A stretch of DNA of 64,000 nucleotides from positions 1-64,000 of IMG/VR virus record IMGVR_UViG_3300009159_008491. One strand, given 5' to 3'. Below the pieces are notes generated by a model that was not told the origin of the DNA, ran no database searches, and was given only the letters and a program-made list of their open reading frames with translations. Below, one piece after another: positions 37,189-52,540 of the stretch. Source of the stretch: a virus. The number at the start of each line of letters is the position of its first letter. The stretch's first letter is position 1. Position numbers and translations under genes: made by a program.

Positions 37189-38172
37189 TTATCTATAAGA
37201 TTTTTTTCCTTGTAAAACATCTAACCAATGATCACACATTTCATGTAAAAGTGTTTCAAAATAATACTCTGGTTCCCAATTTAATATTTTTCTTGCTTTT
37301 GAAGAATCTCCTTTTAAATAAGGTAATTCTTCTGGCCTTAAATATTTTGCATCTTGTTTTATAACAATAGGATCAATATCAAGATAATTACAAACAATGT
37401 TGCACATTTCTCTTACCGTATGTGTTTGCATTGTAGAAATTACAAAATCATCCGGTTCATTATGATTTAACATTAAATGCATTGCTTTCACATAATCTTT
37501 TGAATGTCCCCAATCACGATATGAGTCCATGTTTCCTAAAAATAATTCTTTTTGTAATCCAAGTTTAATTGAACATAATCCTTTTGCAATTTTACTTGAA
37601 ACGAAATTACTACCTCTTCTTGGCGATTCATGATTAAATAGAATTCCATTAGAAATAAATAAGTTATAAGCCCTTCTATAATGCCTAGTGATATTATAAC
37701 CAAAGACCTTGGAACATCCATATGGAGAAACAGGATTCATAATGGTTTTTTCTCTTTGAAATCCATCTTCATCTATGGTTAAACCAAACATCTCAGAAGA
37801 ACTTGCTTGATAAAATTTTGCTTCAGGACAATTTTCTTTATAGGCTTCTAAAACATTTAACACGCCAAGAGCATTTATTTCTACTGTTAAATTTGGAATA
37901 TCACTAGATATTCTCACATGACTTTGTGCAGCTAAATTATAAATTTCATCAGGCTTTATTTTTGACAATAAATTATTTAAAGAATATTGATCAATTAGAT
38001 CGCCATAATGTATATTTATTTTATCTTCTATATGTTCTAATCTATAAGATTGATTTTCAGATACAGAGTGTCTTCTAACTATCCCATGAACCTCGTATCC
38101 TAAATTTAAAAGATGTTCAGAAAGATAACTTCCATCTTGACCTGATATTCCAGTTATAAAAGCTTTTTTCAT
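37189..38172 (-). CDS. gmd: GDP-mannose 4,6-dehydratase
   Basis: FITGISGQDGSYL, YNLAAQSHV, QASSSEMFG, SPYGCSK, GILFNHESPRRG, RDWGH. Confidence 0.96.
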   Translation of the reverse strand: MKKAFITGISGQDGSYLSEHLLNLGYEVHGIVRRHSVSENQSYRLEHIEDKINIHYGDLIDQYSLNNLLSKIKPDEIYNLAAQSHVRISSDIPNLTVEINALGVLNVLEAYKENCPEAKFYQASSSEMFGLTIDEDGFQREKTIMNPVSPYGCSKVFGYNITRHYRRAYNLFISNGILFNHESPRRGSNFVSSKIAKGLCSIKLGLQKELFLGNMDSYRDWGHSKDYVKAMHLMLNHNEPDDFVISTMQTHTVREMCNIVCNYLDIDPIVIKQDAKYLRPEELPYLKGDSSKARKILNWEPEYYFETLLHEMCDHWLDVLQGKKSYR

Positions 38173-38780
38173 ATATTTTTTTTAAAAATTTTCATTTGTG
38201 TTAAATCGGGCCAATCGGTGAATACCCATTGTCTTGGTTTCTTCTCAATCGCTTCAGGTAATTTTTCAATACCCATTTTAGCAGTTTCAGGTGTCATATA
38301 ATAATGGTAACCTACTGATTCAATATTTTGCTCTCTCCAAGGTATGTTAGGAATTCTTCCGTCATAAGACATTTTTTTTAAACTTATTGCAGCAGTTTCA
38401 TCATTTGTTAATATTATACCCCCTCTTCCTAAGTTCAAATGCTTTTGAAATTGAAAACTAATACACATAAAAGTATTCGGTATATAACTATCTTTTTTCC
38501 ATAAAACAGCGGAATCAATTATGTTTTCTGTAACATAATAAAAATTACTCCATTCCTCATCCCTCCAATCTAAATCAATTTTAAGTTTGTGTGATAAAAA
38601 TGGAATTGAAAGATAGGTTCTTTTTGGTGTACTAATTTTTTTTGCTTCTGTATACAATAAACATAATTCTATTCCATGTGTACAACTATCTACAGCAATA
38701 GCGTATTTTGAACCAAAGAATTCAGCAATTTTACTTTCAAATTCAGAAACAACATTAAAATCAACTTTTTTTAATATCAT
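38169..38780 (-). CDS. Short DegT/DnrJ/EryC1/StrS-like PLP protein
   Basis: FESKIAEFFG..AVDSCTHG, IDSA, SFQFQKHL..GGIILT; 203 aa. Confidence 0.8.
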   Translation of the reverse strand: MILKKVDFNVVSEFESKIAEFFGSKYAIAVDSCTHGIELCLLYTEAKKISTPKRTYLSIPFLSHKLKIDLDWRDEEWSNFYYVTENIIDSAVLWKKDSYIPNTFMCISFQFQKHLNLGRGGIILTNDETAAISLKKMSYDGRIPNIPWREQNIESVGYHYYMTPETAKMGIEKLPEAIEKKPRQWVFTDWPDLTQMKIFKKNI

Positions 38781-38784
38781 ATTT

Positions 38785-39324
38785 TCATTTTTTTACACAT
38801 TCAATATTTAAACTTATTAATACACCATTTTCTTTGTCCATATGAGGAATATACGCCTGAGAATGATCATCATAATTAGCATGTTCTGTGTTCCTCCAAT
38901 CATATCTTTCTATTTGATAAAATCCACTTTGTTCTAGTAAGTCAAATAGTGAATTAAAATCATATGTGGTTTTATGGTATATGTTTGAATTTCCCATTGA
39001 CATTTTTCCATAAAGTGGACCTAAAATTTGATTTAAAGAAACAATTTTGTTTAAATATAATTCTGACATTTTTTCAAAATCAGGAACTGCAATTCTTAAT
39101 GTTTTTTCCGGCTTTAAAACTCTTTTCCACTCTTTTAAAATATCTAAAATTTCGACTCTATCAAAATATTCTATAACATGTGATGAGTAAATTAAATCTA
39201 CAGAATCATCATCAAATGGCAATTTTGTAATATCATTATAATCTAAATGATCATAGGTTCCACCATCTATATGAATCCAATCTTTGCCAAAATTTCTCCA
39301 GCCACACCCTAAATGTAATTTCAT
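38785..39324 (-). CDS. SAM-dependent methyltransferase (type 11)
   Basis: KLHLGCG, LPF.DDSVDLIYSSHVIEY, RVLKP..LRIAVPD. Confidence 0.88.
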   Translation of the reverse strand: MKLHLGCGWRNFGKDWIHIDGGTYDHLDYNDITKLPFDDDSVDLIYSSHVIEYFDRVEILDILKEWKRVLKPEKTLRIAVPDFEKMSELYLNKIVSLNQILGPLYGKMSMGNSNIYHKTTYDFNSLFDLLEQSGFYQIERYDWRNTEHANYDDHSQAYIPHMDKENGVLISLNIECVKK

Positions 39325-39325
39325 A

Positions 39326-40048
39326 TTATTTTTTTTTAGTTAAATTATTTATAACATTTATTATAAAACAAATTGTTATAATTATAAAACTAATAAAAAA
39401 AGATAATTTTTGCAACCCTAAAATTGATAAAAATATTAATATTGTAAAAGTTCCTGTTCCAAAATATTTTATTAATTCAATTGATTTGAAAATTTTTTTG
39501 TTTTCTATTTTGTAGAAGAAATAATAAAAAGAATAATAACAAATATTTTTAGAAAAAAAGTAATATCTATAAAACAATCCATTTTTTTGATTTTCTACTG
39601 ATTTACTTTTAAAAGAATTAGTTTTCTCAAAATTACTTACAGCATCAAGTGTTCCTATGTGTAGTAACATAGGAAATATGAATAGCAATATAGAGAAAAA
39701 AGCATAATAATCAGATTTTAAAAAAAATGTCAATAAGAATAGAAAGCCAACAATGTGATCTTTGTTCCAATCATATACTGCTCCAAAAAAAGAACATTCA
39801 TTATACTTTCTTGCAACTTGCCCATCAACACAATCTAAAACATAATAAATAAAATAAAAAATTACTGCAATTATTAAATGATTATATAAATAAAATACAG
39901 GTGATAAAAATGAAAAAAATAATGAAATTGTGGTTATGTTAGATGGCGATAAACCCATTTTATGTAATGGGTCTACAAGTATATTAGCTATTTTTCTAAA
40001 TATATATAAATCTAAAGGGTCTTCTAGGTTTTTGTTGTAACTTGGCAT
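39326..40048 (-). CDS. CDP-alcohol phosphotransferase (membrane protein)
   Basis: Signature D-x2-DG-x2-AR-x8-G-x3-D-x3-D (DCVDGQVARKYNECSFFGAVYDWNKD); several hydrophobic segments. Confidence 0.88.
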   Translation of the reverse strand: MPSYNKNLEDPLDLYIFRKIANILVDPLHKMGLSPSNITTISLFFSFLSPVFYLYNHLIIAVIFYFIYYVLDCVDGQVARKYNECSFFGAVYDWNKDHIVGFLFLLTFFLKSDYYAFFSILLFIFPMLLHIGTLDAVSNFEKTNSFKSKSVENQKNGLFYRYYFFSKNICYYSFYYFFYKIENKKIFKSIELIKYFGTGTFTILIFLSILGLQKLSFFISFIIITICFIINVINNLTKKK

Positions 40049-40758
40049 TATTTTTTTTCTATTAATACATTATAACGATATGGTGCTGAAAGATTCCAAT
40101 CAAAATTACAAATATCAATTTGATTAAATATTTTAATATCACAATTGTTATCTTTAGCAAAATTTTCAAATAAAGATTTTGGTAAATATAAATGTTTTAA
40201 ATCTTCTTTTATAATTTTATCACTTGATTGATGTGTTTCCTTTCTTAATTTTTTTGCAAGTTCTTCTTTTTCTTTATCTGAAATATCTATAATTAATATT
40301 TTGCCGCTCTTAGAAGTCTGATACATTTTTTTAAGTACCTCTAAAGCATATTCTTCATTTTCAAGATAAATAAAAGTTCCAACATTAAAAACAAAATCAT
40401 ATTTTTCATCTTCACAAACCCATTTCTCATTTTGAGCATCATCTACCCAAAAATTACCTTGTATATTATCTTTGCAGATTTTTATAAGTGACTCGGAATA
40501 ATCAAATCCGTTTAATAAAATATTTGGATAATTTTCATTTATAAATCTTATTGCAGCTCCTGCACCACAGCCAAGCTCCATAATAGAATCAATATTTTTT
40601 AAATAATCTTTAATAGGAAAAAAACTATTTGATAAAAAATTATCCCATTGTTTTTTTTCTAGGTGATCCCATCCATCTAACTGGTGAAGATCTTTGTTTT
40701 GAAAACCTTTTTTGTTCCAAACCTCTTTCCAATCATTTTTTTGTTTTACTACATCCAT
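40048..40758 (-). CDS. Class I SAM-dependent methyltransferase
   Basis: MELGCGAG, GFDYS, YDFVFNVGTFIYL. Confidence 0.85.
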   Translation of the reverse strand: MDVVKQKNDWKEVWNKKGFQNKDLHQLDGWDHLEKKQWDNFLSNSFFPIKDYLKNIDSIMELGCGAGAAIRFINENYPNILLNGFDYSESLIKICKDNIQGNFWVDDAQNEKWVCEDEKYDFVFNVGTFIYLENEEYALEVLKKMYQTSKSGKILIIDISDKEKEELAKKLRKETHQSSDKIIKEDLKHLYLPKSLFENFAKDNNCDIKIFNQIDICNFDWNLSAPYRYNVLIEKK

Positions 40759-41831
40759 TTAAATATGTTTTTCATTTTATTTACGTGACTATCAAAAAAT
40801 TCTACATTTCCATTAAAAATTTCTCTGCTTTTATAATTGAAATTAATAGATTTAAAATTATTTTCATTTAAAAAATAACTAGTTTGCTCTATTTTTAACG
40901 GCATATTGTTTTCCCATTCTTTACAAGAAATTGCACAAGAAGTTGTTGAGTTGTATAGATCGTATTGTGCCCTGCTATCTTCTAGAAAAAAAGTTCTTTC
41001 TTTATTAAATTGATCATAAATACTTTGGCCCATCCAATCATTTTGTTTATCTATTCCAAATTCTTCACAAAATGAAGGTATAAAATCTAAAATAGATATT
41101 AAGCCATGATTACTTTTTCTATTTTTTATATTGTCTTTAGATAATACCCAAGTTGTCCAAGCGTGAGGTGGCGAATTAAATTTATCAATTTTTTTAAAAT
41201 TTCCATGATCAGAAAAAAACCAAAAAACAGAATCTTCTTCTTCAAAATCCCAAGCATCAATTATTTTAAATATAGATTCATCAAGATGGGAAAAATTTTC
41301 TAAATCTGTATTTGTAGCCTCATGATGATGGTGATAAATTATAAAATGAAATTCATTTAATTCACTTTTATTTTTTTGTATTTTTTTAATATGATTAATT
41401 TCTCTTTCGGTCATTTTAAGAGATTCTTCTGAAAAATGACAAAGTAAATCTTGAGTTTTCTTATCAGTCCAAATTCCAGTTTTTTCTCCAGAGCCATCAA
41501 GTTCTATTCCGCTTGTTCTATCTAATTTAAATTTATTAAATATTACATTTTCAATCCAAACAGAGTTGTGTAAATAAATTTTCCACTTTTCTCTATCTAA
41601 TTTTTCAAATAATTGAATATCGCTTCTTTTTAAAACATCGGGTTCACTATTATAACCAAAACCATTATTGAAAACTTGTGATGGTAAATATCCAGTAAGT
41701 AATGAAAAGACAGAAGTAAAAGTAAAACTATTAGATATTTGATGATGAAAATCCAAACCTTTTTCCTTGCTAATATCTATTAATTTATCATAGAAAGGCA
41801 TGCTATCAAACAATACGCAATAAAATTTCAT
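40749..41831 (-). CDS. Alkaline-phosphatase/sulfatase-fold enzyme (Thr-nucleophile type)
   Basis: VLFDSM, TFTSVFSLLTG, FSDHG, SILDFIPS, WMGQS. Confidence 0.65.
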   Translation of the reverse strand: MKFYCVLFDSMPFYDKLIDISKEKGLDFHHQISNSFTFTSVFSLLTGYLPSQVFNNGFGYNSEPDVLKRSDIQLFEKLDREKWKIYLHNSVWIENVIFNKFKLDRTSGIELDGSGEKTGIWTDKKTQDLLCHFSEESLKMTEREINHIKKIQKNKSELNEFHFIIYHHHHEATNTDLENFSHLDESIFKIIDAWDFEEEDSVFWFFSDHGNFKKIDKFNSPPHAWTTWVLSKDNIKNRKSNHGLISILDFIPSFCEEFGIDKQNDWMGQSIYDQFNKERTFFLEDSRAQYDLYNSTTSCAISCKEWENNMPLKIEQTSYFLNENNFKSINFNYKSREIFNGNVEFFDSHVNKMKNIFKWM

Positions 41832-41895
41832 ATTTGATTAATATTATAATACTTTATAATAATAAGTAATTTTTAATCAAATGTAAATTTTTATT

Positions 41896-42624
41896 TTATA
41901 GTTTAACCCATTCTCTAGATGAGTCTACGCTATAAAATTTCCACAAAATATTATCTGCATATTCATTCCAATGTTCTTTACTTGATGGAGGAGGATAGTT
42001 AAATGATGCATTATCTATGTTTATAAAGTTACTTAAAGGAATATTTTGTTCCTCTGAATTAAGAAATTCATTTTTAACAAAAATTAAATTTTGTTGATTA
42101 GATCTAAAAACCAAACTATATCCTTTTTCTTTACCTAAATTATAAAGAGCAGCTAAAGAAGCACCAAAATAATCTGTACTGGTGTTGCTTTTATCTGGAA
42201 CAACTAATGGAATTGTTGGATCTAATGATGAATTAAATTCTATAATTACAACTCTAGGGTTGTAATTACAACTTTTCCAACACCAATAATCATGAGAATC
42301 AATATCTATACTCAATAAATCAAATTCATTTGGAACATTGTTTTGAGAAAATAAATCATTTATGTTTTCAGAAGTGACAGTACCCTGTATAATTCCATTT
42401 TGACATTTTGAACTATCAGATTCTAAGAGTAAACCACTCCAATCGTGATTTAATTTTAAATTTGCTGTGTTGGATAAATGTACTCCATCCCACGCACCAA
42501 ATTCAACAAAATATTTATTTATAGTACCTATTTTATTGAAAATTTCTAACAATATTCCATCTTCTCCATTTTGAGAATATACCTTTTTTTGAAAACTTTT
42601 TAAGTTACTAATAAACTTTTCCAT
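41896..42624 (-). CDS. FkbM-like methyltransferase
   Basis: YSQNGEDGI, FVEFGAWDG..SNT, LLSIDIDSHDY, PRVVIIEFN. Confidence 0.8.
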   Translation of the reverse strand: MEKFISNLKSFQKKVYSQNGEDGILLEIFNKIGTINKYFVEFGAWDGVHLSNTANLKLNHDWSGLLLESDSSKCQNGIIQGTVTSENINDLFSQNNVPNEFDLLSIDIDSHDYWCWKSCNYNPRVVIIEFNSSLDPTIPLVVPDKSNTSTDYFGASLAALYNLGKEKGYSLVFRSNQQNLIFVKNEFLNSEEQNIPLSNFINIDNASFNYPPPSSKEHWNEYADNILWKFYSVDSSREWVKL

Positions 42625-43597
42625 GCTCTATACTATTTATATCTTTTATATTAATAAATTTTTCCGAATCAAATTTTTCAAATCTTGCAAAATTTATACA
42701 CGGAGTATAGATAATTATTCCTTTATTAAAATAACAAGCTAGAGTTGAAAATGTACTTTGTCCTGTTACTAAATAGGAAGAAGAAACTAAATGATGAAAA
42801 ATTTCAGTATCTAAACCGCCAGAAATAATATTTATTTTACCTTCAAATTTATTATTTAAAATAGTATTGTTTTTTTCATTTGGATTCATACTAAATTTAT
42901 GAAAATTACTATCTAAATTTAATATTTCTTGAAAATCTAAAAATTCTTCTTTTTCTCCTTCTGTAAAAATAAAAAAATTAGCATTTGGTATTTTTTCTTT
43001 TAGTATTTTTATTAATTCAATATAATGATTATCGTTTTTCCATCGATCTGGATGAGCTAAAATTTTTACATCACCTCTTCTCATGTGAATTGCCACATTT
43101 ATCTCTCCAGCATTATAAATTGTATTTGATAAATTATTTTTTTTCCAATATGCTCTTTGAAATTTTTCTATAATCCATTCAGAATCATCAATCATCTTCC
43201 CCGGAAAATGTATTCCGGCTTCTGTACCAAGTTCAAACAATGTGTTATAATTATAGTCAACATATTTTTTTATGTAATTTGTCATATAATCATAATCTGG
43301 ATTATGAAATCTTTCTAATTCTGATAAATTTGAACTTAAATTTAGATGTACAGAAGGAATTGAAATTTTTCTATTAAATTCTATATCATCAATTGATTTA
43401 AATTCAGATCTTAAATTTAATAATCTATTGAATCTTGAACTTGAATTTGTTAAATCAGAATGAATAAATTCAAAATCTAATTTTTTTGACAATAATAATC
43501 CGGTTATGTAGTTGTACATACAGTGACCTAGTGATCCTCTAAAATGGTTTGTACTACTATGATCATTAAGAAGATTTGATTTTAAAAAATTTTTCAT
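42608..43597 (-). CDS. Fucosyltransferase-like GT-B (GT11/GT23-type)
   Basis: GSLGH, VAIHMRRGD, STFS. Confidence 0.7.
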   Translation of the reverse strand: MKNFLKSNLLNDHSSTNHFRGSLGHCMYNYITGLLLSKKLDFEFIHSDLTNSSSRFNRLLNLRSEFKSIDDIEFNRKISIPSVHLNLSSNLSELERFHNPDYDYMTNYIKKYVDYNYNTLFELGTEAGIHFPGKMIDDSEWIIEKFQRAYWKKNNLSNTIYNAGEINVAIHMRRGDVKILAHPDRWKNDNHYIELIKILKEKIPNANFFIFTEGEKEEFLDFQEILNLDSNFHKFSMNPNEKNNTILNNKFEGKINIISGGLDTEIFHHLVSSSYLVTGQSTFSTLACYFNKGIIIYTPCINFARFEKFDSEKFINIKDINSIEHGKVY

Positions 43598-43603
43598 AAA
43601 TTA

Positions 43604-44158
43604 TTATTTTTTTTTATGATACCATACTCCACCATCATGTAAATCATAATCAGAAAACACTTCATTAACAGCTTTTACAACCCCCATTCCGTTTTGATCA
43701 TATCTAAAATCATGACCAGAAATTATACCACCTTTTCTTATTTTTGGCAACCAATTTTGAATGTCTTTTAAAACTGATTCATAGGAATGATCAGCATCTA
43801 TAAAAACAAAATCTACAGATTCATCTTCAAATTGACTGGCAGCTTCCCAAGAAATAGATTTAATATCGATAATCATATCTCTTACGTTTTTATTTTTGAG
43901 ATTTGTATTATAGATTTCATTTATATGTTTTACTTCATCTAATACATTTTTATTTTTATTCCAATCTTCAAAAATATCAACTGCGTAAATTTTTACATTA
44001 GGTTTATTTCTCAAATTATTTGCTAGATAAGAAATTGAATGTCCTTTCCAAACTCCTAATTCTACAAATGTATTAAAATCTTCATGAGATGATATCATAT
44101 TGTAGAAAGATTGATAATTAAACCAATTGTTTGTTTCTAATAAATTGTTTATATTCAT
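43604..44158 (-). CDS. SAM methyltransferase (Methyltransf_24)
   Basis: VELGVWKG.S, DFVFIDADHSYE, GGIISGHD. Confidence 0.9.
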   Translation of the reverse strand: MNINNLLETNNWFNYQSFYNMISSHEDFNTFVELGVWKGHSISYLANNLRNKPNVKIYAVDIFEDWNKNKNVLDEVKHINEIYNTNLKNKNVRDMIIDIKSISWEAASQFEDESVDFVFIDADHSYESVLKDIQNWLPKIRKGGIISGHDFRYDQNGMGVVKAVNEVFSDYDLHDGGVWYHKKK

Positions 44159-45161: not shown

Positions 45162-45869
45162 TTATAAATAATTTTTTATTGAATCATAACTAGCTTGTGA
45201 ATTATGTATGTCAGAATAGCCACCTTCTTGATATGCTAGGAATGGCATCGCTATAAATGATTTAATTGATTCTTGAATTGTTACATAACAGGAATCAACT
45301 GGTTTAGTAAACATATTTGTCTCTAATAGTTTTATTAAAAATTTATAAGCCGATGAATTTACTGCATAAGAATGTGTGGTATGTGTACTTATTAACTCTG
45401 AATAATAATTAAATTTTTTTCCTTCTTTTACCAAAGAACCACTTAAATAAAACATATCCCATTCTGTAGGAAAATTTTTAGATAAATTTTCTAATTTTTG
45501 TTCAAAATCATCAGAAAAAGCCACATCATCTTCTAATACAAGAATGGAACTATAATTATTTTTTTGTGCTAATTTTAATGTTTCTAAATGAGAAATTAAA
45601 CATCCAACTTGTCCTTTGAAATATCTATCGTGATAATTCTCAATTCCAAAAAAATTTCCCGGTTCATGTTTATAAAATTCATTTTTAATAAATGAAACTT
45701 TTTTATTTTCATAAGTAAAATTCTCATCTATTAAAGAATAACCATCACAAGCTTTTATTCTTTCAAAAGAAAAATTATATTTTTCAGAAATTTTTAGAAA
45801 TTTATCGTATCTATCTTTTCTTTTGTCTAAGTTTATTAGATAAATTTTTTCAAAAAGATTATTTAACAT
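45162..45869 (-). CDS. GT25 glycosyltransferase
   Basis: YLINLDKRKDR, GCLISH, LVLEDD, WDMFYL. Confidence 0.88.
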   Translation of the reverse strand: MLNNLFEKIYLINLDKRKDRYDKFLKISEKYNFSFERIKACDGYSLIDENFTYENKKVSFIKNEFYKHEPGNFFGIENYHDRYFKGQVGCLISHLETLKLAQKNNYSSILVLEDDVAFSDDFEQKLENLSKNFPTEWDMFYLSGSLVKEGKKFNYYSELISTHTTHSYAVNSSAYKFLIKLLETNMFTKPVDSCYVTIQESIKSFIAMPFLAYQEGGYSDIHNSQASYDSIKNYL

Positions 45870-45912: not shown

Positions 45913-46623
45913 TTATTTAGAATATTTTATTAACTCATTTACTTCCTTAAAATATTTTTCATAAGGTCTTAGAAGATGAGAATCTATATAGTGTCCTTTC
46001 TTTAATAGTTCTATATCATAAGTCCATTTACTCCTATCAATTCTTTTTGAAAAATCTCTATCTTTTTTTACTATTAATTTATCTTTGTGATTTTCGAGTT
46101 TATCAAACATGAAGTTTTCATCTGAATTCCATGCTAAACCATATTTTTCATTTAATAGATTACAATAACTTTCAAAATTTAAATCTTGAAGATCTAAGAG
46201 TTTTATATAAGTTTGAGATTTTGATAATACATAACACATAGGATAAAATTTATTTTTATCATATGGCTGTCCGGAATAAAGTATCATATTATCACTAGTT
46301 AATTCATCATTATATTGATTAAAATATTCTCCATTTAATGGTAACATATCAATGTCAGACATTAACAAATTACCATCAATAAATTTTGAAGTGAATAATC
46401 TAACTATTTGTGATTGAAATCCAGTTGGAAAATTTTCTAATGCTTTTATGTTGTGTACAATACCCCATTTATTTTCATATATTGAGTTTTCATCTGTAAT
46501 GTTTACATAATAAGTTTTAAATCCAAGATCAAGCCATTTTTTTGCAACTATTGGATAAAAATCTTTATAAAGTGAATTATCATCAGATGATATTACTACA
46601 TAATCTATCTTTGTATTATTCAT
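45913..46623 (-). CDS. Putative GT-A glycosyltransferase
   Basis: Q.VRLF, MSDIDMLP (DxD); cluster context. Confidence 0.5.
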   Translation of the reverse strand: MNNTKIDYVVISSDDNSLYKDFYPIVAKKWLDLGFKTYYVNITDENSIYENKWGIVHNIKALENFPTGFQSQIVRLFTSKFIDGNLLMSDIDMLPLNGEYFNQYNDELTSDNMILYSGQPYDKNKFYPMCYVLSKSQTYIKLLDLQDLNFESYCNLLNEKYGLAWNSDENFMFDKLENHKDKLIVKKDRDFSKRIDRSKWTYDIELLKKGHYIDSHLLRPYEKYFKEVNELIKYSK

Positions 46624-46636
46624 ATTATTAAAATGA

Positions 46637-47503
46637 TCAAATCATTTTTTGATCTTTAAGTATTTTTTCAAATTTTTGTTCTATAGTATACCATTTTGAA
46701 TCCACTTCAACAGCATCTAACCATTTGTTATGCCAGTGCCAACAAAATGATCCTTCATAAAGATCAAAATCATATTTTTTCATAGGATTCCATAAACCCA
46801 TTAATGGATCTTGCCATTCACTATTAAAAAAACCACTTGGGAAAATTGTCCAATCTTTATTATAGTTTCTAACTTTTTGATATAAATCTGTTGACCAATT
46901 TGTAGTATTTGGTTTTATAGCACCGTTATTTATTTCACTCATTAAATCATTGGAAAGTTTACTGTTTGCAAACAATCTCATTACAGCTCCATTTATCATT
47001 TTCTTTTCAAGTCCCCATTTATACATAAATTCTTGATCTAAAATTGGAGAAAATGATCTTAAAAAAGCTACATCTACATCAGTATATAAACCACCATATT
47101 TGTGTAGAATTAAAATTCTAAATAAATCTCCTTTTGCCCAATTCTTTTCATCTTGTGCTTCGATTATATCTTTTCTACCCTCTAAAACTGTACCTTTTAT
47201 TTCTTCTGCAGGATTATAAATTCTTAAATTTATAAAAGGTAAATAAGGCTTTAAAAATTCATTATTTTTTAAATCTACATTACACCATAAGTTAAATCTT
47301 GTATTTTCTAAATCTTGTGTACACAAATAAGATTTTATTCCTAATAATTGTTTTCTTTCAAAAGGTAATCCAACATTCCAAAAAACATGGAAATCAACTA
47401 TTTCTTTTAATTTATTATTATCTTCTATTGTTTTACAAAAATTTAGACATTCATCTAAGTCGTAATACAATATTTTGTTTTCATCTTCAGTTATTTTAAC
47501 CAT
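46637..47503 (-). CDS. GT32 glycosyltransferase
   Basis: DLFRILILHKYGGLYTDVD; WHWHN. Confidence 0.85.
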   Translation of the reverse strand: MVKITEDENKILYYDLDECLNFCKTIEDNNKLKEIVDFHVFWNVGLPFERKQLLGIKSYLCTQDLENTRFNLWCNVDLKNNEFLKPYLPFINLRIYNPAEEIKGTVLEGRKDIIEAQDEKNWAKGDLFRILILHKYGGLYTDVDVAFLRSFSPILDQEFMYKWGLEKKMINGAVMRLFANSKLSNDLMSEINNGAIKPNTTNWSTDLYQKVRNYNKDWTIFPSGFFNSEWQDPLMGLWNPMKKYDFDLYEGSFCWHWHNKWLDAVEVDSKWYTIEQKFEKILKDQKMI

Positions 47504-48182
47504 TGTTCAAATATTTTTTTATTAATTTTTGAATATATCCTTTTTTTTCTATTTTTTTTAATTTTAAAAATAGGTTTATTTCAGGATTGTTTTCAAATAT
47601 AGTTGAAATTTCTGTATTAATCAATAAATTATAATTTAAATTTTTATTTAAATTGTTTGCCATTAAAGTAGCTAGGTTTAACACACTAATTTTTTCTACT
47701 GAAGAAAAGTTTAAGGTTCCAGAAATATTATTTTCTAAAGCATAAAAAACAAAATCCCTTACATCGTCAATATCAATTAAGGATCTTTCAGAATCTTTTA
47801 TTATTGAAATAATTTCATCTTTAGAAATTTTATCTTTAAAAAAATTAAAAATATTATTTGAATTACCGCCAGTCCCAACTAGTTGTGGTAATCTTAATAT
47901 TAAAAAATCATGAGATTTCTTTTTAATTATGTTTTCAATATTTGTTTTATGTTCATAATAGGGACTTTTTCTATTTATGAAAATACTACTAAAATAGACT
48001 AATTTTAAATTTTTATTCTCAGATAATACTTGATTAATTAAATCTACTTCCTTAGAAAAATTATTTAAATCACTTTCACTTGAATTGGAAACTCCCGATG
48101 CAAAAATTATACAATTAAATTTTTTGTCTATTTTATGTTCCAAAAAAGATTTAGCCAATAATCCATTTCCTATTATCTTCAT
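47496..48182 (-). CDS. Short NAD-dependent epimerase/reductase (SDR)
   Basis: IIGNGLLA, FASGVSNS, VYFSS, YxxxK (YYEHK), RSLIDIDD. Confidence 0.8.
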   Translation of the reverse strand: MKIIGNGLLAKSFLEHKIDKKFNCIIFASGVSNSSESDLNNFSKEVDLINQVLSENKNLKLVYFSSIFINRKSPYYEHKTNIENIIKKKSHDFLILRLPQLVGTGGNSNNIFNFFKDKISKDEIISIIKDSERSLIDIDDVRDFVFYALENNISGTLNFSSVEKISVLNLATLMANNLNKNLNYNLLINTEISTIFENNPEINLFLKLKKIEKKGYIQKLIKKYLNNG

Positions 48183-48814
48183 TTATAAAATTCTTTTTTT
48201 AGCACAAATAAACTATCCCAATAATTTCTTCCTAATCCCATTGGAAAACCTTCGTGATCAGTTATTTCATGTTGTTTTATTTCGCAATAATTTAACATTT
48301 TTTCAAAAATTCTCTCATAATACAAATGATTATCCGGATAGTTTGGATTCATAAATCTAAAATCATGAAATTCGACAGAATATTGTTTTGAAATAGTCCA
48401 ATCAATATTTTCTAAAATTTTATATTCACCACCTTCTATGTCAAATTTTATAAGTTCAAATTGTTTTATATTATATTTATTCATAACATCTTTTATGGTT
48501 AACATAGGAACTTCAATTTTACCAATTAATTGACACCAATCTTTTTCTGGATTTAATAATGAGCACCCTTGATTGTCACTATAAATAAAAAATTCAGTCA
48601 TTTCATTGTTTGAGTCATGTGAAATAGCTGCTCTTTCATATAATATTCCTTCTGGAGCTTTTTTGATTTTAGGATTAGGGTCAACACAAATAATGTTATC
48701 ACATAATTCTTTCATTTTAAGTGTAAATCCAAAATTTACACAACCCAAATCTAATACATATCCATTTCTATCAATAGTAGTTTCTTCTATTGTGTGTTCA
48801 GCAAGTGTAATCAT
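48179..48814 (-). CDS. FkbM methyltransferase
   Basis: VLDLGC, VDPNP, IKFDIEGGEY, SVEFHDF. Confidence 0.85.
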   Translation of the reverse strand: MITLAEHTIEETTIDRNGYVLDLGCVNFGFTLKMKELCDNIICVDPNPKIKKAPEGILYERAAISHDSNNEMTEFFIYSDNQGCSLLNPEKDWCQLIGKIEVPMLTIKDVMNKYNIKQFELIKFDIEGGEYKILENIDWTISKQYSVEFHDFRFMNPNYPDNHLYYERIFEKMLNYCEIKQHEITDHEGFPMGLGRNYWDSLFVLKKEFYK

Positions 48815-49494
48815 TTTAATGTTTTTAGATATTGTTTTAAATTTTCTATATGTTCAATAACTGTTTCATCATTCTCGTTAAATACCTGACCTACAAATTC
48901 AAAATCATTACGATCTGATGGGAATGGATAGTTGTTAGGGAAATCAAAAAAATCATCATGACAAATCATACTATCCATGTATGCTTTATGTATTTTAATT
49001 AAAAATCTTTGATCATCTCCATAATTAAAAAGATTCTTATCTTTTAAATATGTATTGATCATTTCAGACATATTAAATTTATGATCATTTTTCATTCCCC
49101 AAGTACCGCCTAAAATCAATACTCCATGTTGTGGATGATCTCTCATAATGTGAAGATTTTTATCACTCTCAATCCATTGATCTACGGCTTCTTTTTCTCT
49201 TGTGTTTAATCTAGAGTCTGTATCTCTAACAATAAATCTTTCTACTTCTTTATCGTCATAAACCATAAAACGCCAAAACATTCCAAATCCATTAAGGTTG
49301 GTATTTGACATATCAACTAATTCAGCATTAAATTTTTTTAATTCATTGATATAATAACTTGGAACTGTATAGTTATAATAAACTCTACAAATCCAATCTG
49401 GATATATTTCTGGTTGTAACAATATATTTTTTATTGCTCCAACGCAATATTTTGGGTTGTCTCCGTATAAGCTAAAAGCGATTATTTTTTTCAT
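48811..49494 (-). CDS. Putative GT-A glycosyltransferase
   Basis: IAFSLYG, MFWRF, IVRDTDSR, MRDHP.H..ILGG.WG, DQ.FL. Confidence 0.55.
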   Translation of the reverse strand: MKKIIAFSLYGDNPKYCVGAIKNILLQPEIYPDWICRVYYNYTVPSYYINELKKFNAELVDMSNTNLNGFGMFWRFMVYDDKEVERFIVRDTDSRLNTREKEAVDQWIESDKNLHIMRDHPQHGVLILGGTWGMKNDHKFNMSEMINTYLKDKNLFNYGDDQRFLIKIHKAYMDSMICHDDFFDFPNNYPFPSDRNDFEFVGQVFNENDETVIEHIENLKQYLKTLK

Positions 49495-50357
49495 TAGTAT
49501 AATATTTCTTTTAATAATTCTGTTAGTTGTTGTGCTCTAACAAAATATGTATGATTATCTAAAACATGATTATACCCTTCATTAGATATGTTTTCTAGTT
49601 TATCTGTGTTTTTAAGATAGTAACTTATTTTATCTAACAAATCTTTTTCTGAATTATAAACCACTAAGTGTTTGTTTAAATCAAATAATTTTTCTAAACT
49701 GGGAGTATGATTTGTAAAAAGCGTTGTTTTGCATCCAAGAGTTTCGAATGTTCTAAAGTTAATATCATCAGCTAAGTTTCTATTAAAATGAATCTTGTAA
49801 GAATTTATGGCTTTTACCATATCGTTCCCAATTACAAAAACATCTTCTCTTAACCTATATTTACTTTTTATTAGATCAATCCAATTTTTTCTATTAAGAT
49901 AGTTTCCACAAAATCCAATGTCATATTTTTTTTCTATTTCTGACATTGGAAAAATTAAATCATCAGGATATGCATTCGGAAACCAAATTGTTTGTTGCTT
50001 TTTAAAATATGTTTGATGATGTTCTATAGCACATAAAACCAATTGTATTTTATGTTTATTACAAGTATCTACATGTTGCTGTGGAACACAGTGAGAATCA
50101 ATCGACCAAAAAATTTTGAATTTTTTACTTTGAGATAAATCTGGAATCCAGCCGTTTATTTCATAGTTTTCCAACAATATGATAACATCACATTTTTCCT
50201 CCAGTTCTTTAAATGAAATATTGAAGTTATCGTAGTTTAAACCCCATACAACAGAATCATGACCCAATTTCTTTAAAGCTCTACTTAAATTGAGTGCCTC
50301 CCTAAATTCTTGATTTGCTAAGTGCCTTCCTTTTTCCTGTATTAATAAAAAATTCAT
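49494..50357 (-). CDS. CgeB-like glycosyltransferase (Glyco_trans_1_2)
   Basis: YDIGFCG, INFRTFE, HTYFVRA. Confidence 0.8.
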   Translation of the reverse strand: MNFLLIQEKGRHLANQEFREALNLSRALKKLGHDSVVWGLNYDNFNISFKELEEKCDVIILLENYEINGWIPDLSQSKKFKIFWSIDSHCVPQQHVDTCNKHKIQLVLCAIEHHQTYFKKQQTIWFPNAYPDDLIFPMSEIEKKYDIGFCGNYLNRKNWIDLIKSKYRLREDVFVIGNDMVKAINSYKIHFNRNLADDINFRTFETLGCKTTLFTNHTPSLEKLFDLNKHLVVYNSEKDLLDKISYYLKNTDKLENISNEGYNHVLDNHTYFVRAQQLTELLKEILY

Positions 50358-51025
50358 TATAATGCTAGATCAAAATTATTTTTTTTTCTTTTTTCATAAT
50401 TCACTTTATCAACATTATTAAATGAATCATTTTTTACTTGTAAATTATCCCACTTTTCTCCTAACCATACCGGATGTTCATGTTTAATTATTACATGTGG
50501 TATGTATTTTACTTTATTAAGTATTCTAGAAACATCTGTAAATTCAGTATCACACCAAAGACTTACATATGTGGGGTTATATATATAACCAAATCGATCA
50601 TAATATTTTTTGCCAAGTATGGATAATGTATTTAAGTTTGAACCTTGATATCCATCGTTAAACCATAAAACTCCATCAGTATCTGGAAAGAATTTTTTAA
50701 AACTTTGTTTAATTATTGTATCATATCCTTTTTCTTGAGGTATCATGTCATCAGAAGCAAGTAAAATCATATCATAATCATTATCATTCATATCAGCATT
50801 AATTGCCTCTATTTTGTTTTTATTATTTCCAAAGTAGAATTTTAGATTTTCATATTCTTTAAATTTGTTTATAATAATTTCATTATTCATTGTAGAATCG
50901 TCAGCGTCACAACTGATTATGAATCTAGTATTTGACAAATCATCCAAAAGATTATAATATTTATCTAAAACTAAAAAAAACTTATCAGGTCTTGATCTTG
51001 TAGGGAATTTAATTAGTAATTTCAT
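50357..51025 (-). CDS. GT2-like glycosyltransferase
   Basis: KFPTRSRP, LASDDM, WCDTEF, HEHP. Confidence 0.75.
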   Translation of the reverse strand: MKLLIKFPTRSRPDKFFLVLDKYYNLLDDLSNTRFIISCDADDSTMNNEIIINKFKEYENLKFYFGNNKNKIEAINADMNDNDYDMILLASDDMIPQEKGYDTIIKQSFKKFFPDTDGVLWFNDGYQGSNLNTLSILGKKYYDRFGYIYNPTYVSLWCDTEFTDVSRILNKVKYIPHVIIKHEHPVWLGEKWDNLQVKNDSFNNVDKVNYEKRKKNNFDLAL

Positions 51026-51713
51026 TTGTAATTTGTGATTTTATTAAAAATTTCATTCTGTCAATATTTAAAATTTTAAAATTAAAGTTAATAATTTCAT
51101 TTCTATTTTCAAAAATTAGTTCTATTGTTTTGCTTTGTTCAAAACAAGCCATTAAGTTTTTGGGGTAATTATCAAATATTTGTAAATTATTCTCAAGCTC
51201 AATAGTATCAGAAAAATTTATATTTTTTATAAACTTTAAAAGTTCTTTTCCTCTATATACTGTTCCGTCTAAATTAAACGGATAACCAAAGTCCATATAG
51301 TGCTTTGACCAGTCCCAAATTAAAATTCCATCATCTTCTCTTTCAGATATGAAAACATTATCGCAACCCATATTAGAACAATATGTTATATTTTTTCCAA
51401 GACCTAATCCGAAGCAAAATATTTCTTGATATAAAAGTGTATTTTTTATTTTTTCTATATCAACCCTGTCATAGAAAAATTTATTTTCATCAATTATTGT
51501 AAAATTATTTTTGACATCATTTTCAATAATTTCAACTAATTGCCTTTTTAAATCATTAACAACCAAAACATTATATTTATTTTGACTGTCTTTTAAAAGA
51601 TTATTTTGATCTAAAATTGCAATTGAATATTCTCCAATAACTTGATTTTCAATACTTTTAATGAGTAAATCAAGATTTTCTAAGTTTCTGTTTAAAATAA
51701 TTATAAATTTCAT
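51009..51713 (-). CDS. GT-A-like protein
   Basis: DFGYPFNLDG; cluster context. Confidence 0.45.
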   Translation of the reverse strand: MKFIIILNRNLENLDLLIKSIENQVIGEYSIAILDQNNLLKDSQNKYNVLVVNDLKRQLVEIIENDVKNNFTIIDENKFFYDRVDIEKIKNTLLYQEIFCFGLGLGKNITYCSNMGCDNVFISEREDDGILIWDWSKHYMDFGYPFNLDGTVYRGKELLKFIKNINFSDTIELENNLQIFDNYPKNLMACFEQSKTIELIFENRNEIINFNFKILNIDRMKFLIKSQITNEITN

Positions 51714-52540
51714 AATAATAGTGGTTTTTTATTTTGAATTAAATCTTGTGTATTATAATATAAATCTGAATTTGTTTTTTCAGAATTAATTGGATTGTCT
51801 ACATTATAGATATAAATGACATCTTTTATATGTAAAACATTATTAAAACCAGCTAATTCTGCTAAAGGATAAAAAATAGCCATGTTTGAACAACATGAAA
51901 ACCAACTTCCATTTTCATCTGTGAAACTATTAAATAGGGGATCAGTTTCCATGAATTTTGAGTACAAAGAATTTTTAAAAGTAATAGGATGTGAAAGTTT
52001 TGAAGTAATTCTCCTTAGAACAGAAAATTCTTTTTCTGAATAAGGTCCAGAATAGCACTTTTTTCCATCTGATAATTTTGCTGAACCATAAGTTAATAAA
52101 CAGTTAGTCTGATTATAATAATCATTTATTTTACTTAGTACGTTTTTATTTACTAACCAATCATCTCCATATAATATAAATATAATATCATCTGGATCCT
52201 GACTTGCATTTATTATTGCATTATGTATATTGGGCAAAGCAGTTAATCTTTTGTTTGATCTCCAAGCATTTACTTTGTTGCACTTTGTTATTTCTAATAT
52301 TGGATGAATTTCAGTAATAATCAATTCTCCTTTTTCATCTCTTACTGGTTCATTGTTTTCATCAGTTTGATATGTACAGGCAGGTATTTTATTATAACTA
52401 TCATCAGTTGATGAATCGTCTATAAATAAAACATCATAATTATCATAATCTTGAGTTAGGACTGAATTTATACACATATCTAAAAAATCGCCCGGATTGT
52501 GGAAAGGAATAATAACCTTTATTTTATTGTTTTTTGACAT
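51710..52540 (-). CDS. GT2 glycosyltransferase
   Basis: VIIPFHN..CINSVLTQ..IDDSSTD..GDDWL. Confidence 0.85.
   Translation of the reverse strand: MSKNNKIKVIIPFHNPGDFLDMCINSVLTQDYDNYDVLFIDDSSTDDSYNKIPACTYQTDENNEPVRDEKGELIITEIHPILEITKCNKVNAWRSNKRLTALPNIHNAIINASQDPDDIIFILYGDDWLVNKNVLSKINDYYNQTNCLLTYGSAKLSDGKKCYSGPYSEKEFSVLRRITSKLSHPITFKNSLYSKFMETDPLFNSFTDENGSWFSCCSNMAIFYPLAELAGFNNVLHIKDVIYIYNVDNPINSEKTNSDLYYNTQDLIQNKKPLLL

Follow-up and report, generated by a model that had tools for sequence, protein, structure and literature searches.

A variable glycan-synthesis island in a T4-like jumbo phage that may act on virion proteins

The DNA analysed here, a stretch of 64,000 nucleotides referred to as the window, forms the first part of a 94-kb fragment (G000) from an uncultured low-GC T4-like jumbo phage, whose genome is 32% complete. 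Its phage origin, assumed in a preliminary description made from the sequence, was borne out by a T4-type baseplate wedge, portal, TerL and tail fibres on the shared contig. On the minus strand, from 52540 down to 37189, we found a 15-kb cluster of 21 intact, tightly packed ORFs (Table 1). Its genes had been described as co-oriented and mostly coupled glycan genes, and they are: neighbouring ORFs overlap at 11 of the 20 junctions, spacing does not exceed 13 nt at 18 of them, and the other two have gaps of 43 and 64 nt. The cluster contains no terminator-like hairpin; the first on the minus strand lies at 35024-34999, and the phosphoesterase-like gene is in one terminator-free unit with the island. 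The cluster encodes Gmd, a truncated perosamine-synthase-like protein, nine glycosyltransferase (GT) or GT-like proteins, a sulfotransferase, a cupin, a short SDR and four or five methyltransferases. Two genes are newly identified. The membrane protein left unnamed before is a CDP-alcohol phosphotransferase, and the 21st gene, previously without assignment, encodes a soluble alkaline-phosphatase-superfamily (AP-type) enzyme. Across the window we counted 27-28 glyco-related genes, close to the earlier figure of about 29, and 13 genes with GT domains.

Table 1. Features of the glycan island, its flanks and the distant fibre and glycosyltransferase genes.
Feature	Position	Strand	Evidence
Ser-rich collagen-like fibre protein (28% Ser), candidate acceptor	323..1309	+	PF01391 E 1.9e-27
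GT2 + TibC-like (BAHT) putative protein serine-glycosyltransferase fusion, conserved in lineage	5052..7418	-	76% identical in G001
Conserved 550-aa metallophosphoesterase-like gene, fixed lower flank of island	35480..37132	-	PF00149, weak
GDP-mannose 4,6-dehydratase (Gmd)	37189..38172	-	PF16363 E 2e-109, full length
Truncated DegT-family protein (mini-DegT), 203 aa	38169..38780	-	PF01041 E 4e-16
Small SAM methyltransferase (Methyltransf_11, C-terminal part of model)	38785..39324	-	E 1.1e-9
CDP-alcohol phosphotransferase, sole multi-pass membrane protein of cluster	39326..40048	-	PF01066 E 7.5e-14
Class I SAM methyltransferase (Methyltransf_25)	40048..40758	-	E 1.1e-11
Soluble alkaline-phosphatase-superfamily enzyme (sulfatase/LtaS/YejM fold)	40749..41831	-	AF2 model pLDDT 94
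Unassigned protein, proposed fifth methyltransferase of the preliminary description	41896..42624	-	No family match
GT11-like (alpha-1,2-fucosyltransferase type) glycosyltransferase	42608..43597	-	HMRRGD motif (HxRRxD)
Methyltransf_24 (CmcI/TylF-like sugar O-methyltransferase type)	43604..44158	-	PF13578 E 5.9e-23
PAPS-type carbohydrate sulfotransferase (Sulfotransfer_2)	44161..44748	-	PF03567 E 1.8e-10
WbuC-type cupin	44750..45160	-	TIGR04366 E 1e-9, 38.4 bits, below 42-bit cut-off
GT25 glycosyltransferase	45162..45869	-	PF01755 E 1.4e-17
Virus-only protein, probable GT-A transferase, weakest GT call	45913..46623	-	DxD-like motif and weak Atlas lead
GT32 glycosyltransferase	46637..47503	-	PF04488 E 4.5e-10; DXD motif (DVD)
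Short SDR (RmlD/epimerase-like), putative 4-keto-sugar reductase	47496..48182	-	PF04321 and PF01370
FkbM-family methyltransferase	48179..48814	-	PF05050 E 2.5e-13
GT-A hexosyltransferase, virus-only family	48811..49494	-	Atlas score 0.99 to clusters 91-99% viral
CgeB-like GT-B glycosyltransferase	49494..50357	-	PF13524 (Glyco_trans_1_2) E 4.3e-27
Phage glycosyltransferase (phrog_14945), conserved head	50357..51025	-	PHROG match E 2.5e-21
GT-A-fold transferase, family without Pfam model, conserved head	51009..51713	-	AF2 model pLDDT 88
GT2 glycosyltransferase, first gene of operon, conserved head	51710..52540	-	PF00535 E 1.3e-10
Divergent intergenic region, must hold cluster promoter	52541..52605	.	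No CTATTTAT on cluster strand
PhoH, fixed upper flank of island	54060..54767	-	PF02562 E 2e-58; 94% identical in G001

Large T4-like phages of low GC content form a lineage in which the island keeps a fixed position between PhoH and the phosphoesterase-like gene, whose product shares 81% and 57% identity with its counterparts in relatives. Variability of the cluster between related phages, raised in the preliminary description, was evident from the relative G001 (217 kb, 83% complete, collinear with G000, about 78% protein identity), where 17 of the 21 genes had no counterpart in the island. Only the three promoter-proximal GTs are conserved at this locus, and the remaining 13 kb or so has given way in G001 to other genes with glycan functions: five FkbM, four Gmd/epimerase and four GT2 genes, together with a carbamoyltransferase, GT6, GT10, GT-D and a UDP-glucose dehydrogenase. 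Such a swap at a fixed locus resembles bacterial serotype loci. Among the head genes, GT2 shares 77% identity with its G001 counterpart and 57% with that of G002, and the phrog_14945 gene is 84% identical in G001. The GT-A-fold transferase (59% identity in G001, 38% in G002) has 732 relatives, counted among 50% cluster representatives, and its best Foldseek matches are CgT, SpsA, TarP and Mimivirus R699 (prob 1.0).

The roughly nine GT or GT-like genes counted before (GT2, GT11-like, GT25, GT32, CgeB-like) were recovered as nine, three in the head and six in the variable body. A counterpart of the CgeB-like gene was not found in G001. The GT-A hexosyltransferase has homologues in Synechococcus phage S-SRM01 and the huge phage LR756501, and GT2 and TPR-fused proteins are among its neighbours by structure. 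For the weakest GT call, the best Atlas clusters are 96-100% viral and without Pfam family, and the nearest named families (GT8/Nucleotid_trans at 0.94) are a lead only; of 85 related viral loci, 8 carry a protein of this type. Both of these families are almost exclusively viral. Pfam missed the GT11-like protein itself, while PF01531 (GT11 family) was matched by 7 of its 18 homologues.

The sulfotransferase, gmd, SDR, cupin and DegT-like genes listed in the preliminary description were all matched by family searches, the cupin under the cut-off and the SDR partially. The mini-DegT is closest to GDP-perosamine synthase; its best PDB matches, 3bn1 and 3dr7, are perosamine synthetases with the Schiff-base Lys aligned, and a paralogue lies at 8899-9528. 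For the short SDR, only the C-terminal parts of SDR models were matched, near the cut-offs, with weak NCBIfam matches to RmlD and WbcJ. The sulfotransferase shows both PAPS-binding motifs (PKNAGTS and RNPxxR), and the cupin has a homologue in L031 (46% identity). Four of five proposed methyltransferases were supported by family matches. The fifth was not, with no match in Pfam, PHROGs or NCBIfam; a homologue with 39% identity lies inside the G001 island. Homologues of the small Methyltransf_11 protein, of about 177 aa, occur in L018 and G002, and the Methyltransf_25 gene has a homologue at the matching position in L031 (42% identity).

A hydropathy scan revealed a single multi-pass protein in the cluster, in agreement with the one membrane protein counted before. 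This CDP-alcohol phosphotransferase gave no match among 50,697 phage records. CDP-alcohol phosphotransferases are membrane enzymes that normally make lipids, and this one could be the source of a lipid-linked or phospho-alcohol intermediate. Foldseek matched the AP-type enzyme to S1 sulfatases, YejM, LtaS and LtaP (E 4e-9, prob 1.0). It carries Thr at the nucleophile position; all 48 sequences compared have D9, D208 and H209, nearly all have T37, and there are more than 100 marine relatives. The product might be lipid-anchored: the CDP-alcohol phosphotransferase would catalyse the true initiating step, producing at the inner membrane an anchor of the phosphatidyl- or phospho-polyol type, and the soluble GTs would build a glycolipid on it, with PI as anchor of mycobacterial PIMs as a parallel. 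The enzyme's intact catalytic motif (DxxDGxxARx8Gx3Dx3D) and its four TM segments agree with such a role, its nearest NCBIfam models are inositol-phosphate-type synthases (far below cut-offs), in L031 the genes for AP-type enzyme, methyltransferase and CDP-alcohol phosphotransferase stand in the same order (41-42% identity), and contigs of matching lengths hint at such a pairing in three Logan assemblies. However, the gene belongs to the variable body and not to the conserved head, has no counterpart in the islands of G001 and G002 and occurs in one of 85 loci carrying the AP-type enzyme, and a tailed phage has no membrane where such a lipid could serve. We therefore regard a lipid anchor as improbable.

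Near the start of the window, residues 448-785 of the GT2 fusion protein match TibC (4rb4, E 3e-54), with the iron-finger cysteines (CxxC...WCPRH...FECT) aligned. By this homology, the phage encodes a predicted cytoplasmic protein O-glycosyltransferase, which is likely the priming enzyme. Ser-rich collagen-like fibres exist in G000 and G001; in G000 they adjoin the TibC-like gene, and the fibre protein in Table 1 contains GSS repeats. The TibC operon (5-13 kb) and the cluster (37-52 kb) are tied by co-residence only. A promoter-like element, CTATTTAT, precedes structural genes, including those for fibre and neck, by 5-43 nt in G000 and G001, and was not found on the cluster strand of the intergenic region ahead of the cluster.

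T4-like phages glucosylate their DNA. Virus GTs can also attach varied glycans to DNA, as far as Pyle 2024 is cited in PMC12619734. On these grounds the GTs might glycosylate modified phage DNA bases as protection from restriction, a strategy of T4 and other phages. We consider this very remote: nine GTs, Gmd, a sulfotransferase, O-methyltransferase-type enzymes and a phospho-alcohol module are not matched by any known DNA modification, a non-exhaustive search of the annotated genes of the 94-kb fragment turned up no hydroxymethylase, and the TibC homologue targets protein.

Wzx, Wzy_C, Bac_transf and Glycos_transf_4/WecA-type families had no match in the four related records G000-G003, and ABC_tran had a single match, below the cut-off. 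In G001, all 281 ORFs have fewer than six TM segments; its two 4-TM ORFs are a PrsW protease and a protein of unknown family. In 85 more distant related viral glycan loci, 5 of 990 ORFs have at least four TM segments. The lack of Wzx, Wzy, ABC transporter and initiating phosphoglycosyl transferase first noted for the window thus holds beyond it, across four records including the 83% complete one.

Soluble O-antigen GTs act on lipid-linked intermediates from host enzymes, so missing phage export genes are compatible with the use of host machinery such as flippases. The phage GTs and tailoring enzymes could then work on lipid-linked intermediates of the host (for LPS, capsule or its general O-glycan), while host primers, flippases and ligases finish the job during a long infection, and the changed surface would block superinfection or grazing. 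Remodelling of the host envelope is the published reading for the 'LPS' clusters of P-SSM2 (PMC1079782) and the cell-wall genes of S-SCSM2R (PMC12801897). It would also suit the families typical of O-antigen or LOS (Gmd, perosamine-synthase-like, WbuC cupin, GT25, GT11-like, GT2, FkbM), the lack of the structural-gene promoter motif upstream and the membrane-bound CDP-alcohol phosphotransferase. Yet a primer, flippase, polymerase or ligase was found in none of the four records, host Wzx/Wzy would need to accept quite different glycans from 78%-identical phages, several GT families are virus-only and not host-derived, and the lineage retains its cytoplasmic protein glycosyltransferase. We judge envelope remodelling possible but unlikely.

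All-soluble enzymes and an absent export system would likewise suit another cytoplasmic acceptor, either phage or host proteins that are not part of the virion, or a small molecule freed by lysis. Such an acceptor is improbable: replacement of a serotype kind among close relatives suggests that the product is exposed and under diversifying selection, and the locus sits amid structural genes.

The best reading, whose chances we put at about even, is a strain-specific glycan built directly on virion surface proteins, the fibres. We infer it from the absence of a lipid-carrier primer, flippase, polymerase and transporter in both the phage fragment and the 83% complete G001, together with the TibC-type enzyme beside Ser-rich collagen-like fibre genes. 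The earlier proposal that glycans are built on virion proteins in the cytoplasm is upheld in part: phage origin, absent export genes and the TibC homologue speak for it, whereas the membrane-located CDP-alcohol phosphotransferase and the absence of CTATTTAT, which bears on co-expression with virion proteins, speak against it. Also counted against it are virion proteins without C-terminal Ser/Thr tails of the mycobacteriophage type and the incompleteness of the genomes, at 32% for G000 and 83% for G001.

On this reading, the block is a phage-owned glycan factory working in the cytoplasm. Gmd would convert host GDP-mannose to GDP-4-keto-6-deoxymannose, from which mini-DegT, cupin and short SDR may produce 6-deoxyhexose donors, either of perosamine or of a sugar of the fucose or rhamnose type. 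Chain extension would fall to six more soluble GTs, among them the GT11-like, GT25, GT32 and CgeB-like enzymes, and four or five methyltransferases and the PAPS sulfotransferase would cap the chain. The CDP-alcohol phosphotransferase and the Thr-nucleophile AP-type enzyme might add a phospho-alcohol group. Placed on fibres before or during assembly, the glycan would give each phage strain its own surface glycan. Virion glycosylation is described for mycobacteriophages, as far as Freeman 2023 is cited in PMC12619734, and Megavirinae carry clade-specific fibril glycosylation clusters of 6-33 genes (PMC10117803). Large glycan clusters are already known from the marine myoviruses P-SSM2 and S-SCSM2R and from giant viruses.

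The 21 ORFs of the glycan cluster all lie on the minus strand, from 52540 to 37189, and 11 of the 20 junctions between them overlap, while 18 are no longer than 13 nt. No terminator-like hairpin was found within 52540-37189; the first minus-strand terminator lies two genes past the cluster. Searches of Pfam, PHROGs and NCBIfam assigned Gmd, a DegT-like protein of 203 aa, methyltransferases of the Methyltransf_11, _25 and _24 families, FkbM, Sulfotransfer_2 (with both PAPS-binding motifs visible), GT25, GT32, a CgeB-like GT, GT2, the phage GT phrog_14945 and a short SDR. A WbuC-type cupin matched below the model cut-off. ORF layout and family matches agree with the preliminary description of 21 co-oriented, mostly coupled glycan genes, and its sulfotransferase, gmd, SDR, cupin and DegT-like gene were all recovered, the cupin with the reservation just given. 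Its count of about nine GT or GT-like genes held as well, with one soft call (the virus-only ORF with a GT8-type lead); four of its five methyltransferases found a family, and the fifth did not. The 64-kb window encodes 13 GT genes in total.

Four GT-like ORFs without Pfam support were examined by other routes, namely the GT11-like, the GT-A-fold and the two virus-only ORFs. While the GT11-like ORF itself has no Pfam match, its two nearest homologues (71% and 68% identity) carry PF01531. Structural neighbours of the GT-A-fold model include Mimivirus R699 and an SpsA-like fold. Single-sequence PDB searches with the ORFs starting at 40749, 42608, 48811 and 49494 yielded no useful match. All-against-all BLAST joined no two genes of the cluster, by which recent paralogy among them was rejected. 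Megablast of the entire cluster against 50,697 phage records returned no match, nor did scans of IMG/VR with two single proteins, the GT11-like one and the CDP-alcohol phosphotransferase described below.

Features of the window, of its source record (G000) and of related records (G001, G002; L019, a more distant locus); positions refer to the window unless stated otherwise
Feature	Position	Strand	Observation
GT2 (head)	51710-52540	-	identity 77% in G001, 57% in G002
GT-A-fold protein (head)	51009-51713	-	confident model; no Pfam family; 732 relatives among 50% cluster representatives; identity 59% in G001, 38% in G002
phrog_14945 GT (head)	50357-51025	-	identity 84% in G001; absent from G002
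Virus-only GT ORF	48811-49494	-	family 91-99% viral; structural neighbours GT-A
Virus-only ORF	45913-46623	-	DxD-like motif and weak GT8-type lead
GT11-like ORF	42608-43597	-	HxRRxD motif; 7 of 18 homologues carry PF01531
Fifth methyltransferase call	41896-42624	-	no family match
AP-type enzyme (predicted fold)	40749-41831	-	360 aa
CDP-alcohol phosphotransferase (assigned)	39326-40048	-	4 TM segments
Mini-DegT	38169-38780	-
Conserved gene downstream of cluster	35480-37132		550 aa
First terminator	35024-34999	-	two genes past cluster
GT-B glycosyltransferase (GT1/GT4)	33049-34242	-	83-85% in relatives
GT-B glycosyltransferase (GT1/GT4)	57256-58518	+	83-85% in relatives
T4-type baseplate wedge	25634-27490
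Three large ORFs	13872-23685	-	842, 1131 and 1174 aa
Second variable spot	7420-9528	-
Mini-DegT paralogue	8899-9528	-	209 aa
TibC fusion	5052-7418	-	N-terminal GT2 domain
CTATTTAT sites	13852, 25186, 54045, 54860; G000 75945, 77438, 81871		orthologous sites in G001
Portal ORF of G000	G000 66677-68527	-	616 aa
Portal ORF of G001	G001 71119-74262	-	1047 aa
ORF with AP-type domain (Ga0315546_1000192)	L019:7013-16795	+	3260 aa

The record that holds the window (G000) has 93,819 bases, the window being its first part, and a CheckV completeness of 32%. GC content is ~25% in the window, and 23-26% is cited for the cluster. Besides the T4-type baseplate wedge, G000 encodes a portal, a large terminase, collagen-like tail fibres and a neck-appendage-like protein, all beyond the window. 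The closest phage records by baseplate protein were the uncultured huge phage LR756508 (30%), Microcystis phage Mel-JY01 (28%) and Flavobacterium phage 'immuto' (27%). Structural genes of this kind, with only distant baseplate relatives, indicate that G000 is a fragment of a large uncultured T4-like myovirus. As to the host, a scan of genome contigs with the phage sigma factor gave just two alphaproteobacterial matches, which is chance level. Since no DnaK was found in the related record G001, we did not assign the lineage to the 'moraphages' (PMC12619734). The portal ORFs of G000 and G001 differ in length and are 96% identical across 325 aligned residues. This suggests that the G001 portal either carries an insertion, such as an intein or a homing element, or is a fusion. 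In the terminase TerL (913 aa), terminase profiles matched two separated parts with a short recombinase-like match between them. Three large ORFs that separate the baseplate genes from the glycan operon had no match in Pfam or PHROG; their identity to G001 is 48-58%, under the backbone level, and they may encode fibres or additional enzymes.

A search with the conserved gene just downstream of the cluster retrieved three related IMG/VR records (G001, G002 and G003). G001 comprises 216.7 kb, is 83% complete and is collinear with G000 gene for gene, with a protein identity of typically 75-90% (about 78% for the backbone). All records have the island between the same neighbours, the 550-aa gene at one end and PhoH with two small plus-strand genes at the other. 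Within the island, only the promoter-proximal GT genes, which we call the head, are conserved. Gmd (52%), ORF 41896 (39%) and ORF 48811 (63%) have divergent counterparts in G001, about 15-17 of the 21 cluster genes have none, and the island of G002 has nearly nothing in common with the cluster of G000. Replacement genes in G001 comprise five FkbM, four Gmd/epimerase and four GT2 genes, together with a carbamoyltransferase, GT6, GT10, GT-D, a UDP-glucose dehydrogenase and a nucleotidyl transferase. Gene content is thus clade- or strain-specific across G000, G001 and G002, and the locus has the layout of a bacterial serotype locus, with conserved flanks and head and a variable body. At least three alleles of the island exist in phages that are otherwise ~78% identical. 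Our analysis firmly supports the serotype-like island and its set of enzymes.

A second, smaller variable spot lies between the conserved genes for the TibC fusion and for a 1113-aa GT4-FkbM protein. Its 309-aa ORF, hexapeptide acetyltransferase and mini-DegT have no counterpart in G001. Two GT-B glycosyltransferases outside the island are highly conserved in relatives and belong to a core, not a variable, set of glycosylation genes.

A bacterial serotype locus of the Wzx/Wzy- or ABC-transporter-dependent type would include membrane steps. We ran six-frame searches of the four related records alongside 14 control genomes, in which the models matched 9 to 14 of 14. The initiating phosphoglycosyl transferase families PF02397 (Bac_transf) and PF00953 (WecA/MraY) gave no match in the four records, compared with 9 and 12 of the 14 controls. 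Wzx (PF01943) and Wzy (PF04932) likewise had no match in the four records. For ABC transporters (Wzm/Wzt, KpsMT), PF00005 yielded a single below-cut-off match there, a 20.9-bit P-loop in G001. Neither G000 nor G001 contains an ORF with at least six hydrophobic segments, and the two ORFs of G001 with four TM segments are a PrsW-type protease and a protein of no assigned family. A further 85 more distant viral or metagenomic loci share the AP-type enzyme and in many cases Gmd, mini-DegT or GT2 genes as well; of their 990 ORFs, just 5 encode at least four TM segments. The null searches in four records, together with these loci, show that the absence of export genes is general to such viral loci and not a property of the window alone. 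Thus, the lack of Wzx, Wzy, ABC transporter and initiating transferase claimed in the preliminary description extends to all four records, where export genes elsewhere in the genome were also sought and none exceeded the cut-off (G001 being 83% complete). The hydrophobic-segment scan also confirmed the single membrane protein of the cluster. The cluster is not of the Wzx/Wzy- or ABC-transporter-dependent type: sugar genes, GTs and a variable centre are present and the membrane steps are absent.

TibC-type (BAHT) enzymes act in the cytoplasm, where they attach sugars to the serines of a passenger protein with repeats. The strongest indication of the acceptor comes from outside the cluster coordinates, where the window encodes a fusion in which a GT2 domain precedes a TibC-like domain. 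Residues 448-785 of this protein aligned with residues 44-387 of TibC (4rb4) over ~340 residues at E 3e-54, and the iron-finger cysteines (CxxC, WCPRH, FECT) were aligned as well. The fusion is 76% identical in G001 and has homologues in Microcystis phage Mel-JY01, where it is annotated as an FkbM methyltransferase, and in huge phages LR756501/03/04. The literature searched contained no description of a phage TibC homologue, and the annotated ORFs of the window included no ADP-heptose pathway genes. Compared with TibC and Aah, the phage enzyme has the extra N-terminal GT2 domain, and its likely acceptor would be a collagen-like fibre instead of an autotransporter. The gene is convergent with one for a collagen-like fibre protein containing 28% Ser and with four tip-protein paralogues. 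GSS-type repeats of this fibre recur in a 2342-aa fibre of G001.

Because the TibC fusion lies beside a Ser-rich fibre gene, some GT families in the cluster are virus-only and export genes are absent, direct glycosylation of virion fibres is the best reading, which we consider about evenly balanced between right and wrong. The proposal that virion proteins carry the glycan is accordingly upheld in part: export genes are missing and the lineage has a TibC homologue, but C-terminal Ser/Thr tails of the mycobacteriophage type (at least seven Ser/Thr in the last 15 residues) occur in none of 84 ORFs of G000 and none of 281 of G001. The same enzymes might instead remodel the host envelope, with host flippases taking part in place of the missing export genes; we consider this unlikely. 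The case for virion-fibre glycosylation is indirect: the cluster and the TibC operon are linked by sharing a genome, tails of the mycobacteriophage type are absent, and the cluster is not preceded by the CTATTTAT element of the structural-type genes.

The only multi-pass membrane protein of the cluster, left unnamed in the preliminary description, matched PF01066 with 52.8 bits (cut-off 22) and retains the complete catalytic motif DxxDGxxARx8Gx3Dx3D, by which we assign it as a CDP-alcohol phosphotransferase. No NCBIfam equivalog came near its cut-off and no homologue was present in 50,697 phage records. Marine metagenomes contain over 100 relatives of the AP-type enzyme, which was likewise unassigned in that description. 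Its family profile gave only a weak sulfatase match against the PDB (E 0.25), and a fold search then assigned the family: the model (pLDDT 94) is predicted to adopt the core fold of the alkaline-phosphatase superfamily, with S1 sulfatases, YejM, LtaS and LtaP as Foldseek matches (probability 1.0, TM 0.55-0.62). Anchored on a shared TG motif, T37 appears to occupy the position of the CxPxR cysteine, and D9, D208 and H209 are invariant in the family. A Thr in place of the sulfatase Cys nucleophile, with the invariant Asp and Asp-His, would favour phospho- over sulfo-chemistry. Unlike LtaS and EptA, the protein has no membrane domain.

One distant locus (L031) keeps the order AP-type enzyme, methyltransferase, CDP-alcohol phosphotransferase, cupin, mini-DegT, one unrelated gene and Gmd, with 41-64% identity between homologues. 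Some Logan contigs also appear to carry the AP-type and CDP-alcohol genes together, to judge from equal lengths. In another distant locus, L019, the AP-type domain lies within a single ORF of 3260 aa, presumably a multi-domain glycan enzyme.

Family knowledge suggests what the cluster could make, and we infer the order of chemical steps from it. Gmd would yield GDP-4-keto-6-deoxymannose, from which the cupin and the short SDR could supply a fucose-, rhamnose- or talose-type donor to the GT11-like enzyme; methyl, sulfate and phospho-alcohol groups would be added afterwards. Against the PDB, the mini-DegT matched GDP-perosamine synthases best, and both its catalytic Lys region and a segment near the N-terminus aligned with them. 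It does not comprise the full two-domain PLP fold of ~370 aa: because ~45 internal residues and the entire C-terminal domain are missing, perosamine-synthase-type activity is uncertain. The two mini-DegT paralogues of the window share 29% identity and retain the PLP-lysine region, and a homologue of conserved size occurs in L031 (201 aa, 62% identity). Together they may represent a separate family of short proteins that resemble sugar aminotransferases. Tentatively, the lineage could possess a true serotype locus, an exchangeable, export-free cassette for making a methylated, sulfated and phospho-alcohol-bearing heteroglycan, specific to each strain, directly on the Ser-rich collagen-like fibres of the virion. 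This glycan would be primed by the conserved TibC-type protein glycosyltransferase and the conserved three-GT head and decorated by the CDP-alcohol phosphotransferase paired with a soluble Thr-nucleophile AP-type transferase, a previously unseen pairing.

Large glycan clusters are known from lytic marine T4-like cyanomyoviruses. P-SSM2 carries 24 'LPS' genes in two clusters, described in 2005 and read as host-surface modification (PMC1079782); S-SCSM2R, reported in 2025, has 22 cell-wall-modification genes, including 13 GTs, perhaps the highest GT number in a marine phage (PMC12801897) and comparable to the 13 of our window; and the T4-like cyanomyovirus S-SCSM1 has such a cluster too. Like ours, these large clusters, of putative function, comprise genes for sugar epimerases/dehydratases, GTs (GT2, GT11, GT25) and related proteins. 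The present phage differs in host and lineage, with a GC content of 25% and with closest cultured baseplate relatives that infect Flavobacterium or Microcystis (27-28% identity). In addition, its cluster has a sulfotransferase, a CDP-alcohol phosphotransferase and an AP-superfamily enzyme, and a TibC-type protein GT accompanies it. Our comparison also shows that genes are replaced at a fixed locus in a serotype-like manner. The published cyanophage reading is a change of the host surface, not virion glycosylation.

Megavirinae possess clade-specific clusters of 6-33 genes for bacteria-type sugars, and their fibril glycans are built in the cytoplasm (PMC10117803). Both systems encode nucleotide-sugar pathways and GTs and no bacterial-type export genes. 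However, Megavirinae are giant viruses of eukaryotes with chemically proven glycans, whereas ours is a tailed phage with a putative glycan, and no orthology was found past the level of folds. The locus joins the size and clade-specificity of giant-virus clusters to a tailed-phage background; putative sulfation and the CDP-alcohol/AP-type pair are added, and a TibC-type enzyme accompanies it. O-glycosylation of mycobacteriophage virions was reportedly described by Freeman et al. in 2023. As cited in PMC12619734, soluble GTs encoded by phages such as Che8, Corndog and Myrna act in the cytoplasm on proteins of the capsid and tail, in some cases together with a methyltransferase. The cassettes comprise 2-4 genes and target C-terminal Ser/Thr tails of capsid and tail-tube proteins. 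Our locus is five to ten times larger, has its own sugar-nucleotide pathway and is not accompanied by such tails.

With bacterial O-antigen and capsule loci, the island shares conserved flanks, a variable centre, a GC content lower than that of its surroundings and the families Gmd, Per, GT2, GT11, GT25, FkbM and WbuC; primer, flippase or ABC transporter, and polymerase are what it and the related genomes lack. The spore crust of Bacillus subtilis is an example of a glycan built on a particle surface, in the mother-cell cytoplasm, without Wzx/Wzy. Its SpsA and CgeB are mirrored in the cluster by an SpsA-like fold and a CgeB-family GT; the loci are not orthologous and the resemblance is one of logic only.

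The purpose of 'LPS-like' clusters in marine myoviruses has been in question for about twenty years, and the locus offers a concrete test through its conserved flanks, three-GT head and TibC-type protein glycosyltransferase. Should the virion carry the glycan, tailed phages, like giant viruses, would make complex, strain-specific surface glycans of their own, which would bear on how they adsorb, escape binding to decoys and are recognised by grazers or host defences. Several uncharacterised enzyme families are also to be found in the cluster: the GT-A family without a Pfam model (732 representative clusters), the mini-DegTs of 200 aa and the predicted soluble AP-type transferase, which is common in marine viral contigs.

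Promoter searches gave no timing for the cluster. A sigma-70 scan found 154 sites against 158 expected from shuffles, and the T4 late motif TATAAATA had no positional preference. A Bacteroidota-type -7 box upstream of the cluster was rejected: it is not conserved among G000, G001 and G002 and therefore carries no timing claim. The element CTATTTAT is absent upstream of the glycan island. Elsewhere it sits 5-43 nt upstream of start codons, mostly those of structural-type genes such as fibre and neck genes. Intergenic space makes up 3.5% of the G000 sequence and contains 8 of the 16 copies there, at most 31 nt before a start codon; 13 of 23 copies in G001 are likewise intergenic before starts, often at orthologous genes. 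CTATTTAT is a candidate late-promoter element.
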